IMG/VR virus record: IMGVR_UViG_3300029490_000113
Coordinates: 1-7,775 of that record
DNA length: 7,775 nucleotides
From: a virus
Lineage: Duplodnaviria > Heunggongvirae > Uroviricota > Caudoviricetes
Reading direction: 5' to 3' (one strand)
Positions within the stretch are counted from its first letter, which is position 1. Every line of letters starts with the position of its first letter. Below, one piece after another: positions 1 to 4,057 of this stretch. Under the pieces are notes generated by a model. The model saw only the letters and a program-made list of their open reading frames with translations, was not told the DNA's origin and searched no databases. The position numbers and the translations under genes were made by a program.

Positions 1-860
1 GTCAGGCTGGATGGCGTGGAAAAATAGGTTTGTCGCCATTTTTTGTGAATAGCCATACCGGAAGCCACTTTGCGCAGCTCCTGGAATTTCGGTATCCAGA
101 AATATTCATCCAGATACAGGTTGCCGTGGTAACTCTGGGCCGTGCGGGCATTGGTGCCGAGGAAGTAAAGCGTGGCCCCGTTGGGAAGCACCATCGGATC
201 GCCTTTCAGCTCCACTTCCACTTCTTTGGCGAAGTCGATGATGTACTGCTTAAAGACGTGCGCCTGTGCCTTACTGGCAGAAAGGAAAATCTGGTTACGT
301 CCGGTTAGCAGGGCGTCAATCAGGGCTTCACGGGCAAAATAGAAGGTCGCGCCGATCTGGCGTGACTTCAGCAGGTTGCGGATGCGGTTGGTTTTTCCGG
401 CTTCCCACCAGTGACGCTGGTAGTTGAACATGGAGGAATGGAAGATTTCTTCCAGCTTCTCAATCTGTTCATTGGTGAAAACATTCTTTTCAGGCTGACG
501 GCGCGGGCCTTTGTTGCGGTTGGCGACGTTAGGGTTTAAATCGGCTTCGTTGCCGCCATTGTTAAACTTGCCGATCCGCGCGTGGCGCTCCGACTGGCGC
601 GCCAGCAGATCAATTTCTTTGAAATCTTTCCCTTCTTTGTGCTCCTTCATAATGAGCTGGCAGTAACGTGCGGCGGTGGTGAGCTGCATCTGATCCAGCG
701 GCCCATAGTCACCCCACTTGTCGCGTTTTTTCCAGCTGTGAACGGTTGCAACTTTCTCGCCCAGCATTTCAGCAATGCGGGCTACGCGGTATCCCTGAAA
801 GTACAGCAGCATGGCCTGCCGACGGGGATCGAGATCTGCGGGTGTCAGTGTGGTGTTCAT
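1..860 (-). CDS. P: P2-family terminase large (ATPase) subunit GpP; N-terminal ~286 codons, 3' end beyond window start
   Basis: Hand translation of the reverse complement from ATG at 860..858 is open to position 1 and reads [43 protein letters not shown]...[13 protein letters not shown]. This has an N-terminal HTH-like segment and resembles P2 GpP as I remember it. An in-frame TAG lies 4 codons upstream (870..872). It is divergent from gpO, as in P2. Not in the ORF track because no stop falls inside the window. Confidence 0.85.
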
Positions 861-906
861 GGCACAAACCTACAGCCTTGAATGAAGGCTTTCCCCGCCT
901 GCGGTT

Positions 907-924
907 TGTGTGGTTGTCGGTACA
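907..924 (+). promoter_or_regulatory. Candidate Ogr-dependent late promoter element (TGT-N12-ACA dyad) for the gpO-N-M operon
   Basis: TGTgtggttgtcggtACA sits in the 142 bp divergent gpP/gpO intergenic region. It matches the TGT-N12-ACA half-site spacing described for P2/P4 late promoters. Its centre is about 55-60 bp upstream of a plausible start near 970-975, with a weak -10-like CATAAG at 963..968. A 6-specified-base dyad is expected about twice by chance in 7.8 kb, so position is the main support. Confidence 0.4.
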
Positions 925-1002
925 AATACCGCGCATTGTTTCACTGCCCCCATCACCGCAACCATAAGGCTCCAGTAAGTTTTTTCTAACGGAGCACGGC
1001 TC

Positions 1003-1836
1003 ATGACAGTGAAAGCAAAGCGTTTTCGCATCGGGGTGGAAGGTGCCACCACCGACGGACGCGAAATCCAGCGTGAATGGCTGGAACAGATGGCAGCCAG
1101 CTACAACCCGGCGGTGTATACCGCGCTGATTAACCTTGAGCACATCAAGTCTTATCTGCCGGACAGCACCTTTAACCGCTACGGCAAGGTGACGGCGCTG
1201 TTTGCTGAAGAAATCACGGAAGGTCCGCTGGCAGGCAAGATGGCGCTGTATGCCGACGTTGAGCCAACAGAGTCCCTGGTGGAGCTGGTGAAAAAAGGCC
1301 AGAAATTATTCACCTCTATGGAAGTCAGCCCAAAGTTTGCTGATACGGGCAAAGCCTACCTGGTCGGGCTGGCTGCCACTGATGACCCTGCCAGTCTGGG
1401 CACTGAAATGCTGACATTCAGCGCCAGTGCAGCCCATAACCCGCTGGCAAACCGCAAGCAGAATCCTGCCAATCTCTTTACCGCTGCAGAGGAAACGGTG
1501 ATCGAACTGGAAGAAATCCAGGAGGACAAGCCGTCCCTGTTTGCCCGCGTCACGGCGCTGTTCACCAAAAAAGAGCAGTCCGACGATGCCCGGTTCTCTG
1601 ATGTGCATAAGGCCGTGGAGCTGGTCGCCACTGAGCAGCAGAACCTGAGCGCACGCACCGAAAAATCCCTGTCTGAGCAGGAAGAACGTCTGTCTGAGCT
1701 GGAGACTGCCCTGCAGGCACAGCAGACCGCCTTTAACGAACTGGTGAATAAGCTGAGTCATGAAGACAGCCGCCAGGACTACCGCCAGCGTGCAACAGGC
1801 GGTAACGCCCCCGCTGACACTCTGACCAATTGCTGA
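1003..1836 (+). CDS. O: P2-family capsid scaffolding protein / prohead protease GpO
   Basis: 277 aa ORF, MTVKAKRFRIGVEG...NLEHIKSYLPD...YLVGLAATDDPASLGTE...DDARFSDVHKAV...ATGGNAPADTLTNC, is collinear with P2 GpO as I remember it. GGAG RBS at 991..994. It is followed 16 nt later by the capsid gene. Confidence 0.9.
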   Translation: MTVKAKRFRIGVEGATTDGREIQREWLEQMAASYNPAVYTALINLEHIKSYLPDSTFNRYGKVTALFAEEITEGPLAGKMALYADVEPTESLVELVKKGQKLFTSMEVSPKFADTGKAYLVGLAATDDPASLGTEMLTFSASAAHNPLANRKQNPANLFTAAEETVIELEEIQEDKPSLFARVTALFTKKEQSDDARFSDVHKAVELVATEQQNLSARTEKSLSEQEERLSELETALQAQQTAFNELVNKLSHEDSRQDYRQRATGGNAPADTLTNC

Positions 1837-1852
1837 TGGAGCACAAAACCCG

Positions 1853-2911
1853 ATGAAGAAGAATACCCGCTTTGCTTTTAACGCTTACCTGCAGCAGCTG
1901 GCGCGTCTGAACGGTGTGGCAGTTGAAGAACTGTCCAGCAAGTTCACCGTAGAGCCGTCCGTGCAGCAGACATTGGAAGACCAGATCCAGCAGTCCGCCG
2001 CTTTCCTGACGCTGATTAACGTCACGCCAGTGACTGAGCAGTCCGGTCAGCTGCTGGGGTTGGGAGTTGGCAGCACCATTGCCGGAACCACTGATACCAC
2101 CGCGAAAGAGCGTGAACCTGTCGATCCGACGCTGATGGTCGATGTGGAATATAAATGCGAGCAGACCAACTTTGACACGGTGCTGACCTACGCGAAGCTG
2201 GACCTGTGGGCGAAATTTCAGGATTTTCAGGTGCGTATCCGTGACGCCATCGTGAAACGTCAGGCACTGGACCGCATCATGATCGGCTTTAACGGCGTGA
2301 AGCGTGCGAAAACCTCCAACCGTAGCGAAAACCCGCTACTGCAGGATGTGAATAAAGGCTGGCTGCAGAAAATCCGTGAGGATGCACCGGATCACGTCAT
2401 GGGCAGCACCACCACGGGCGGTGAAACCACACCGGGCGCAGTGAAAGTCGGGAAAGGTGGCGAATATGCCAACCTGGACGCCGTGGTGATGGATGCCGTC
2501 AATGAGCTTATCGACGTGGTCTACCAGGACGATGACGATCTGGTGGTGATTTGCGGTCGTGAACTGCTGTCTGACAAGTATTTCCCGCTGGTCAACAAAG
2601 AGCAGGAAAACAGTGAAAAACTGGCTGCCGATATGATCATCAGTCAGAAACGCATGGGTGGCCTGCAGGCCGTGCGTGCGCCGTTCTTCCCGCCGAATGC
2701 ACTGCTGATCACCCGTCTGGATAACCTGTCCATCTACTGGCAGGAAGACACCCGCCGCCGTTCAGTTATCGACAACCCGAAACGTGACCGGATTGAAAAC
2801 TTTGAATCCGTTAACGAAGCCTATGTGGTTGAGGACTACCGCTGTGCCGCACTGGTGGAAAACATCCAGATTGGCGACTTCAGCGCCGCCGCAGCAGAAA
2901 CCGGAGCGTAA
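1853..2911 (+). CDS. N: P2-family major capsid protein GpN
   Basis: 352 aa ORF, MKKNTRFAFNAYLQQ...KFTVEPSVQQTL...TLDLWAKFQDFQVRIRDAIVKRQALD...VGKGGEYANLDAVVMDA...SQKRMGGLQAVR, matches the P2 GpN family. GGAG RBS at 1838..1841. Tightly packed between O and M. Confidence 0.9.
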   Translation: MKKNTRFAFNAYLQQLARLNGVAVEELSSKFTVEPSVQQTLEDQIQQSAAFLTLINVTPVTEQSGQLLGLGVGSTIAGTTDTTAKEREPVDPTLMVDVEYKCEQTNFDTVLTYAKLDLWAKFQDFQVRIRDAIVKRQALDRIMIGFNGVKRAKTSNRSENPLLQDVNKGWLQKIREDAPDHVMGSTTTGGETTPGAVKVGKGGEYANLDAVVMDAVNELIDVVYQDDDDLVVICGRELLSDKYFPLVNKEQENSEKLAADMIISQKRMGGLQAVRAPFFPPNALLITRLDNLSIYWQEDTRRRSVIDNPKRDRIENFESVNEAYVVEDYRCAALVENIQIGDFSAAAAETGA

Positions 2912-2914
2912 TTC

Positions 2915-3487
2915 ATGAGCCTGAGTCCCGCACGGCAGCATCGCCTGCGCGTTCAGGCTGAACAGGCCGCCCGCGAGGGCGGCAGTGTTCGCCACGCGTC
3001 GGGCTATGACCTGATGCTGCTGCAACTGGCGGAAGACCGCCGCCGTCTCAAGGGCGTTCAGTCCACGGTCAAAAAAGCGGAAATCAAGGTGGAGCTGCTG
3101 CCGAAGTACGCCGCCTGGGCAGAGGGTGTCCTGGCTGCCGGAGGCGCTCAACAGGATGACGTGCTGATGTACGTGATGCTGTGGCGCATTGATGCCGGAG
3201 ATTATGCCGGGGCGCTGGAGATCGGGCGTCATGCCCTGCGTCATGGCTGGGTGATGCCACTGGGTAACCGCAATGTGCAGACCGTGCTGGCAGAGGAAAT
3301 GGCAGATGCAGCGCAGAGCGCAATGCTTGCCGCCACCGGCTTTGATGCCGATCTGTTGTTGCTGACGCTGGAGCTGACAGACGGTCTGGATATGCCGGAC
3401 CAGTCACGGGCGCGTCTGCATAAAGCGATTGGCGCTGTTCTGAGTGAAAGCAATCCGGCTTTACGACCAGTCTGGAGCTTGAAGTGA
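2915..3487 (+). CDS. M: P2-family terminase small (endonuclease) subunit GpM, probably C-terminally truncated
   Basis: 190 aa ORF with GAQQDDVLMYVMLWRIDAGDYAGALEIGRHALRHG and LELTDGLDMPDQSRARLHKAIG, resembling P2 GpM. Start is 3 nt after the gpN stop, with GGAG RBS at 2903..2906. P2 GpM is about 247 aa as I recall, and the expected basic C-terminal tail is missing. The ORF ends ...ESNPALRPVWSLK and is followed by AT-rich DNA instead of gene L. Confidence 0.75.
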   Translation: MSLSPARQHRLRVQAEQAAREGGSVRHASGYDLMLLQLAEDRRRLKGVQSTVKKAEIKVELLPKYAAWAEGVLAAGGAQQDDVLMYVMLWRIDAGDYAGALEIGRHALRHGWVMPLGNRNVQTVLAEEMADAAQSAMLAATGFDADLLLLTLELTDGLDMPDQSRARLHKAIGAVLSESNPALRPVWSLK

Positions 3488-3603
3488 GGATTGATGATTT
3501 CGAAATGGAATGATTCTTCGCAATGGAGAACTTTTAAGTTTGCAAAATGGAATAATGCGGTATCATTATTGTGAATTTAGCAAAAATGGGGAGAACTCGA
3601 AAA

Positions 3604-3822
3604 ATGATGATTTGCCCACTGTGTGGAAGTGCCGCCCATACTCGCAGCAGTTTTCAGGTATCTTCATTGACCAAAGAGCGTTACAACCAGTGCCAGAACA
3701 TTAACTGCAGCCATACTTTTGTTACCCATGAAACTTTTGTTCGTTCGATTGCAACGCCAAAAGAGTCAAATCCGGTTCAGCCGCATCCAATGAAATCAGG
3801 ACAGGTGGCGCTCTCCCTTTGA
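3604..3822 (+). CDS. ogr: Ogr/Delta-family zinc-finger late transcription activator
   Basis: MMICPLCGSAAHTRSS...KERYNQCQNINCSHTFVTHE...VQPHPMKSGQ has the CxxC...CxxxxC zinc-binding arrangement and aligns with P2 Ogr (MFHCPLCQHAAH...KERYHQCQNVNCSATF...). Start chosen at ATG 3604 (or 3607), preceded by GGGGAGA at 3587..3593. The ORF-track start at 3571 is a GTG further upstream in the same frame. Confidence 0.85.
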   Translation: MMICPLCGSAAHTRSSFQVSSLTKERYNQCQNINCSHTFVTHETFVRSIATPKESNPVQPHPMKSGQVALSL

Positions 3823-3900
3823 CGCTGCCGCCATTTTGTCGCCATCGTTAAAAAACAGTGCTTCTAACATCATGATTTTAAACAGCTTAAATTTCAGGCA

Positions 3901-3945
3901 ACAAAAAACCCATCAACCTTGAACCGAAATGGCGGGGTTGATGGG
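3901..3945 (-). terminator. Rho-independent terminator (minus-strand orientation), probably for ybjL
   Basis: 10 bp perfect inverted repeat cccatcaacc (3909..3918) / ggttgatggg (3936..3945) with a 17 nt loop. On the minus strand the stem is followed by TTTTTTGTT. It lies 113 nt downstream of the ybjL stop. There is no T-run after the stem on the plus strand. Confidence 0.5.
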
Positions 3946-4057
3946 CTCCACAAAATGGGGACATCAAAGAAAAGCAGTGGCACTAATTAAGACTGATGCC
4001 CTGCGGAAAAGTTCTGCGGTTGTGCAAAAAAATTTCATTTTCAGGGCAACTTCAGTT

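Follow-up and report, generated by a model that had tools for sequence, protein, structure and literature searches.

That cryptic P2 remnants can retain an ogr gene has been known since the early 1990s. P2 Ogr, the founding member of its family, shares with the protein described here a length of 72 aa, a four-cysteine (Cys4) motif and a position between D and the attachment site (attP in P2); its gene has its own promoter and is also reached by transcripts reading through from the F operon, and a single activator site serves both pP and pO of P2. P4 Delta, which is encoded by a satellite, has the same Pfam family, cysteine pattern and promoter class, but is 166 aa long and contains two tandem Ogr-like domains. 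In E. coli, activators of this family alone suffice for the P2 PF promoter (bioRxiv 10.1101/2022.11.09.515794), ogr and delta each activate P2 and P4 late genes, and P4-like satellites are common in Enterobacterales (PMC8628076). At the rybB gene, the E. coli W genome paper lists the P2-like prophages Rybb*W, Rybb*B and Rybb*Cr (PMC3032704), and a site termed 'Hotspot 29' is occupied only by Felsduovirus prophages integrated in rybB (PMC10121019).

The window analysed here (the whole stretch of 7,775 nt) contains one end of an element of this kind, a P2-family prophage with a 186-like control region that is integrated in the 3′ end of the small RNA (sRNA) gene rybB. The intact relative in E. 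coli ATCC 8739 encodes a 186-like CI/CII/Fil control region, and the switch is of the 186 type, whereas P2 has a C/Cox-type switch. The best explanation of the locus as a whole, to which we assign a probability of roughly 0.6, is that an intact P2-family ogr was left behind by a deletion of ~17.6 kb, that its product would act by the mechanism of its family, and that the gene is intact owing to the recency of the deletion and its position at the prophage end.

The ogr gene and the rybB attachment site

The genes and sites around ogr are the following.

1..860, minus strand: gpP, large terminase subunit, N-terminal 286 codons, running off the left window end (annotation of relatives)
1003..1836, plus strand: gpO, capsid scaffold/protease, full length (Phage_GPO, E = 2e-113)
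1853..2911, plus strand: gpN, major capsid protein, full length (Phage_cap_P2, E = 3.5e-152, profile 1-327 of 327)
2915..3487, plus strand: gpM′, small terminase subunit, truncated (profile match, alignment to relatives)
3590..3593, plus strand: GGAG, Shine-Dalgarno-like, 10 nt upstream of the ogr ATG (direct reading of the letters)
3604..3822, plus strand: ogr, 72-aa Ogr/Delta-type zinc-finger late-gene activator (Pfam match, alignment, identity to WP_000972391.1)
3826..3846, plus strand: two GCCAT-containing motif copies, GCCGCCATTTT and GTCGCCATCG, between ogr and the att core (likeness to 186 arm sites)
3900..3913: attR core AACAAAAAACCCAT, right prophage end, overlapping the rybB 3′ end (14-nt direct repeat, attL/attR)
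3900..3978, minus strand: rybB, host sigma-E-dependent sRNA gene, convergent with ogr (Rfam RF00110, K-12 annotation)

The ogr reading frame opens with ATGATG at 3604 on the plus strand, ends with the stop codon at 3820-3822 and comprises 72 codons plus the stop, in keeping with the 72-73 codons that an initial annotation, made from the letters alone, had given for an Ogr-family frame. Its product matches Pfam PF04606 (Ogr_Delta) with 78 bits and E = 5e-22 over profile positions 2-47 of 47, against a gathering cutoff of 26.3 bits, and equals RefSeq WP_000972391.1 ('ogr/Delta-like zinc finger family protein') in every residue. The cysteines form the pattern CxxC-N22-CxxxxC (C4, C7, C30 and C35). 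When aligned with P2 Ogr, K-12 OgrK, 186 B and P4 Delta (sequences of annotated records), the protein shows identities of 51%, 51%, 54% and, over the aligned part, 39%, respectively; 17 positions are invariant across the five sequences in addition to the four cysteines. The Cys4 motif that the initial annotation had seen as kept is therefore confirmed, with none of the four cysteines substituted relative to P2 Ogr, OgrK or Delta. A search of solved structures for an Ogr relative gave no match below E = 0.4.

Several lines of evidence place the start codon. Translation from 3604 makes the first cysteine residue 4, where P2 Ogr and 186 B also have it, and the 219-nt ogr is annotated identically in related genomes in RefSeq. 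An alternative GTG start at 3571 (83 aa) was dropped, as the homologues and the RefSeq annotations all begin at the position of 3604. Of the ribosome-binding site previously called sensible, the GGAG element is present and usable, while its spacing of 10 nt to the ATG is rather long. Judged from its sequence, then, the frame is a genuine and undamaged ogr, predicted to encode the late-gene activator of a P2-family prophage.

To the right of ogr the window enters the host chromosome, with the genes ybjL, ybjM, grxA and ybjC. Between ogr and ybjL lies rybB, which matches Rfam RF00110 with 105 bits (gathering score 40) and had gone unmentioned in the initial annotation, both as the adjoining host feature and as the attachment site. 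The att core was derived from the two ends (attL and attR) of the intact prophage in ATCC 8739 and the unoccupied site in K-12, and integration of the prophage regenerates an intact rybB. The core lies 78 nt downstream of ogr. The two GCCAT-containing copies within this interval resemble the arm-type sites of the 186 integrase (consensus YAYCGCCAYTY) and by that resemblance may serve as such; similar copies are present at attL.

That ogr stands at the prophage edge, as had been stated, is true. The position is nonetheless its normal place next to attR and nothing unusual, because P2, 186 and all prophages of this kind examined here have ogr as their final gene ahead of att. Intact relatives show the order D, ogr, att, and the window retains 57 nt of D upstream of ogr. 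The same order (D, B, att) is found in 186, whose B protein is the closest characterised homologue (54% identity).

A deletion of ~17.6 kb and the survival of ogr

Alignment to relatives divides the prophage part of the window into two arms. Positions 1-3461 align with intact gpP-gpO-gpN-gpM at up to 99.5% identity. From 3456 onward, the window corresponds to the terminal 57 nt of gpD, then to ogr, att and the host chromosome; identity to relatives is 99.6-99.7% over this right arm of ~4.3 kb and reaches 99.8% for the ogr-att segment alone. The arms meet at a single joint.

3456..3461: deletion joint, gpM up to nucleotide 546 joined to the final 57 nt of gpD, 2-nt TT overlap (alignment to relatives)

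Relative to the intact ATCC 8739 prophage, ~17.6 kb are missing at this joint, comprising L (head completion), X, the holin and lysozyme genes, LysB/C, R, S and a cargo gene, the V-W-J-I-H tail-fibre operon, the DNA invertase gene, and the sheath-tube-E-T-U-D (F) operon. The initial annotation had supposed that the V and F operons were deleted; the alignment bears this out and adds the lysis genes to the loss. The truncated gpM′ consists of 182 native residues and 8 residues read from former gpD sequence, as compared with 216 aa for intact gpM; it lacks the last 34 residues yet retains the whole Pfam small-terminase domain (profile 1-130 of 130). With the lysis genes and all tail genes deleted and gpM truncated, what is left of this P2-family element cannot produce phage. 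Neither GTDB representative genomes nor JGI metagenomes nor any of the 5,426 complete E. coli genomes contain the exact joint, no record of the gpM′ fusion frame was found, and the joint appears private to the source strain.

The breakpoint in gpM recurs elsewhere. In three different rearrangements, namely those of the window, of strain cM2a (locus L001, 6161) and of FORC_081 (locus L004, 6462), gpM is broken at the same base, directly after the sequence ending in AATCCGGCTT. In cM2a the break is joined to the last 606 nt of gpD, as compared with the last 57 nt in the window, and both of these deletion joints have a 2-nt TT overlap. In FORC_081, where the break lies in a second P2-like element, it is followed by 44 nt of unmatched sequence and then by an inverted sheath-invertase-tail-fibre segment. 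The carriers do not represent one clone, because their left flanks differ, being 97.6% and 99.5% identical to the window. Truncated gpM is otherwise rare: the best match is partial in only 5 of 987 records, one of which breaks 24 nt away. A quasi-site for the serine invertase of the prophage was considered at the gpM breakpoint and set aside as unsupported, since its resemblance to the natural cix-like sites is weak.

The retained genes are near-identical to those of intact relatives. The window ogr differs from its relatives by one private synonymous change, which leaves the protein the same as in intact prophages, and the 148 nt preceding the gene show 1-4 base differences from four E. coli relatives. 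We conclude that the deletion is recent, because gpO and gpN are still full length, ogr has acquired a single synonymous change and its upstream region has hardly diverged; after a recent deletion, an undamaged 219-nt gene is to be expected. The intactness of the window ogr thus reflects the recent deletion and involves no demonstrable selection. Most probably, ogr is intact through this recency and its protected place at the prophage end, and not through any need of the host.

Prophages at the rybB site that decayed independently, in cM2a, 22F46 and E. coli B, also keep ogr. The deletions in 22F46 are different again, and the rybB site accumulates independently decayed copies. Retention of an identical ogr in four independently degraded prophages, the window included, would fit a regulator domesticated for the benefit of the host, either as a trigger acting in trans on satellites or remnants upon infection by a P2-like phage, or as a controller of host genes; the retention of ogrK by K-12 in a remnant of ~630 bp and the abundance of P4-like satellites in Enterobacterales (PMC8628076) point the same way. 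A target of 219 nt beside attR and rybB, however, would tend to be spared by internal deletions, and small size and att-adjacent position explain equally well why cM2a, 22F46 and E. coli B have kept the gene. The copies are moreover identical to those of intact phages, so that selection in the phage explains their conservation, and no suitably placed dyad of the kind bound by Ogr was seen at a host target within the window. We regard domestication as quite unlikely, and return to the survival of ogr through recency and position as the preferred reading.

Late promoter, predicted ogr promoter and proposed mode of action

One late promoter region is left in the window, in the intergenic region (861-1002) between the divergent gpP and gpO genes.

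907..924: TGTGTGGTTGTCGGTACA, perfect TGT-N12-ACA dyad, predicted Ogr site common to the divergent P/O late promoters (pattern scan)

Measured from its centre, this dyad is 55.5 nt away from the start codon of gpP and 87.5 nt from that of gpO. It is the same in the intact prophage of ATCC 8739 and similar to the site annotated for the B protein of 186. In the intact relative, TGT-N12-ACA occurs in just three intergenic places of the prophage, each upstream of a late operon. One is the P/O region; the second is 55.5 nt away from the start codon of V, and the third 85 nt from that of the sheath gene. According to the P2 record, V transcription begins at the V start codon itself. By in silico placement, cognate late promoters with a TGT-N12-ACA dyad near -55 are present. 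The number of matches is not above chance, either in the window (5 found, 1.9 expected, with 5 of 200 shuffles reaching 5) or in the 39-kb locus that spans the intact prophage (L011; 8 found, 10 expected), and the remaining matches in the window fall within coding sequence or overlap the gpP start. It is placement only, not count, that argues for the predicted sites.

These findings bear on two earlier statements. The P/O region had been proposed as the target remaining in cis, and a canonical dyad is predicted there at the expected distances from gpP and gpO. The gene had also been called an orphan, which is right insofar as its V and F targets are lost and goes too far insofar as one of three late promoter regions is still present in cis. 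The K-12 ogrK remnant has no late promoter in cis; here the P/O region and its dyad are retained, and ogr is therefore only partly orphaned.

Upstream of ogr, all of the 148 nt are native, and a consensus scan identified a putative promoter within them.

3539..3566, plus strand: predicted sigma-70-type ogr promoter, -35 TTTGCA, 16-nt spacer, -10 TATCAT (consensus scan)

This is the only promoter-like site that the consensus scan found between 800 and 4100, with 9 of 12 consensus matches. It was retained because it sits 83 nt downstream of the deletion joint. The -10 hexamer TATCAT and the approximate position are common to this promoter and to the annotated pB promoter of 186.

Several short repeats surround the site. 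Direct repeats of the form AAATGGAAT(G/A)AT, 42 nt apart, occupy positions 3500-3557 on either side of the predicted -35, with another related copy (CAATGGA) in between; the hexamer GTGAAT, equal to a 186 CI half-site, is found just downstream of the predicted -10. The repeats, CAATGGA and GTGAAT may be binding sites for regulators. A specific CI operator at the ogr promoter was considered but not called: the cI-apl intergenic region of the intact relative shares with it only a GTGAA/TTCAC-type half-site, which is insufficient.

Control by CI has a precedent in 186, where the gene B promoter pB is directly repressed by CI through two CI sites (186 GenBank annotation and, in part, Dibbens, Gregory & Egan 1992), and by analogy expression of ogr in the source strain may depend on a cI gene surviving to the left of the window. 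If so, ogr could be a silent passenger, its promoter shut by CI where CI is retained, or weak when the phage does not replicate, and the gene would be inconsequential until it decays. The repression annotated for pB, the CI, CII and Fil genes in the 186-type control region of the intact relative, the GTGAAT half-site just past the predicted -10 and the apparent recency of the deletion are all consistent with this. On the other hand, CI of the intact relative is only 32% identical to 186 CI, and Klebsiella phages with the same ogr promoter have CI proteins only 48-50% identical; one promoter shared by heteroimmune phages is not expected of a specific operator and speaks against one at ogr. The cryptic ogr genes of E. 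coli K-12 and B are, furthermore, said to have been found functional by Slettan and colleagues in 1992, which counts against silence. A silent ogr is possible, and we hold it as a tentative alternative to an ogr that would work by the family mechanism.

By that mechanism, the protein would bind one zinc ion through C4, C7, C30 and C35, by homology with P2 Ogr and 186 B, would bind a TGT-N12-ACA dyad centred ~55 nt upstream of late transcription starts, and would turn on late promoters by contacting the RNA polymerase alpha subunit and thus activating sigma-70 RNA polymerase. The sole target left to it in cis would be the predicted dyad at 907-924. The deletion has placed ogr downstream of gpO-gpN-gpM′, and the interval 1003-3604 contains no predicted plus-strand terminator, so that transcripts started at the O promoter should now extend into ogr. 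Because of this arrangement, Ogr would feed back on its own transcription, with read-through from O standing in for the read-through from the F operon that would occur in the intact phage, as annotated in P2.

Taken further, such a loop (P/O to gpO-gpN-gpM′ to ogr) could amount to an accidental self-activating module of head genes, freed of lysis and tail genes and perhaps bistable. It might yield a subpopulation filled with procapsids, or a constant supply of Ogr acting in trans that sets off incoming P2-like phages or resident P4-like satellites too early, and the identical ogr of decayed rybB prophages would then be a mark of selection. We consider this elaboration quite improbable. In the preferred reading, a simpler consequence would be that the remnant, if Ogr is made, could express the large terminase, scaffold, capsid, truncated small terminase and presumably the portal protein, whose gene lies downstream of gpP, beyond the window. 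A remnant with neither tails nor cell lysis would provide no complete helper.

In trans, Ogr could turn on the late promoters of other P2-like prophages or of P4-like satellites in the same cell. That both the P/O region and such trans targets would be left for it, as the initial annotation had suggested, is reasonable, as family members act in trans on P2- and P4-like late promoters. Cross-activation of P2- and P4-type promoters by the window protein, which is 51% identical to P2 Ogr, is assumed from the behaviour of the family.

Downstream of ogr, no intrinsic terminator is predicted in 3823-3899, and transcripts of ogr (in intact phages, of the late F operon too) would run antisense into rybB. 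The element differs here from 186, whose integration site is a tRNA-Ile gene and whose B gene is followed by a terminator. One could therefore ask whether the transcript and not the protein is the output, with convergent ogr transcription modulating the sigma-E-dependent sRNA as an antisense. P2 and 186 have an intrinsic terminator right after ogr or B, and none is predicted here at 3822-3900, as this would require. The reasoning is, however, purely structural, the arrangement is a property of all lysogens of this phage type and not specific to the window remnant, termination could be Rho-dependent, and the ogr promoter is modest, with its 9 of 12 consensus matches. We judge this the least probable of the explanations considered, and very unlikely; the protein as a late-gene activator remains the preferred output.

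Occurrence and comparison with described remnants

The gene is widespread. WP_000972391.1 is annotated in E. coli ATCC 8739, cM2a, 22F46 and B REL606, a set of Klebsiella pneumoniae phages encodes an Ogr 100% identical to that of the window, and the exact sequence occurs on at least 1,000 contigs. Among 5,426 complete E. coli genomes, the ogr region was found in 1,153, with at least 80% of the region covered in 1,119. The gene, its protein sequence, the prophage type and the rybB attachment site are all already known, and a leftover intact ogr in a deleted P2-like prophage is ordinary and no new kind of thing. Its significance beyond correct annotation is small, although in the source strain the remnant could still respond to P2-like phages and P4-like satellites or affect them.

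With regard to the characterised activators, the relationship to 186 is the closest, extending to the -10 hexamer TATCAT and to a B-binding site similar to the 907-924 dyad, while the CI proteins of 186 and of the intact relative are only 32% identical. Residue 42 is His in the window protein and Tyr in P2 Ogr, in which it is the site of the ogr1 change that suppresses rpoA109.

Two described remnants provide direct precedents. The E. coli K-12 prophage PR-X (the 'ogr-D′' remnant) has, like the window, an intact 72-aa ogr (ogrK) with the same Cys4 motif; it lies beside att, where the 3′ end of an sRNA gene is the integration site, and is preceded by a gpD fragment. Its OgrK is nearly identical to P2 Ogr, as compared with 51% for the window protein, and its attachment site is cyaR instead of rybB. 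PR-X is ~630 bp long and has no late promoter, whereas the window remnant retains gpP, gpO, gpN, gpM′ and the P/O promoter.

The prophage Rybb*B of E. coli B (REL606/BL21) shares with the window the rybB site, the identical Ogr WP_000972391.1 and internal deletions that spare ogr. Its deletions run from gpO′ to lysozyme′ and from invertase′ to gpD′, so that the F operon is gone but the V operon remains; in the window, neither tail operon is left, whereas gpN is. Rybb*B (locus L013, REL606 884272-904605) also carries a retron with a St85-family reverse transcriptase and an effector, which is Ec86 according to PMC3032704. An ogr RT-PCR product was obtained from uninduced BL21(DE3) and attributed by its authors to primer annealing elsewhere in the genome (bioRxiv 10.1101/2022.11.09.515794, Fig. 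S5); it could instead reflect transcription of the chromosomal E. coli B ogr. Compared with the K-12 ogrK and Rybb*B precedents, the locus described here differs only in which genes the deletion has spared.
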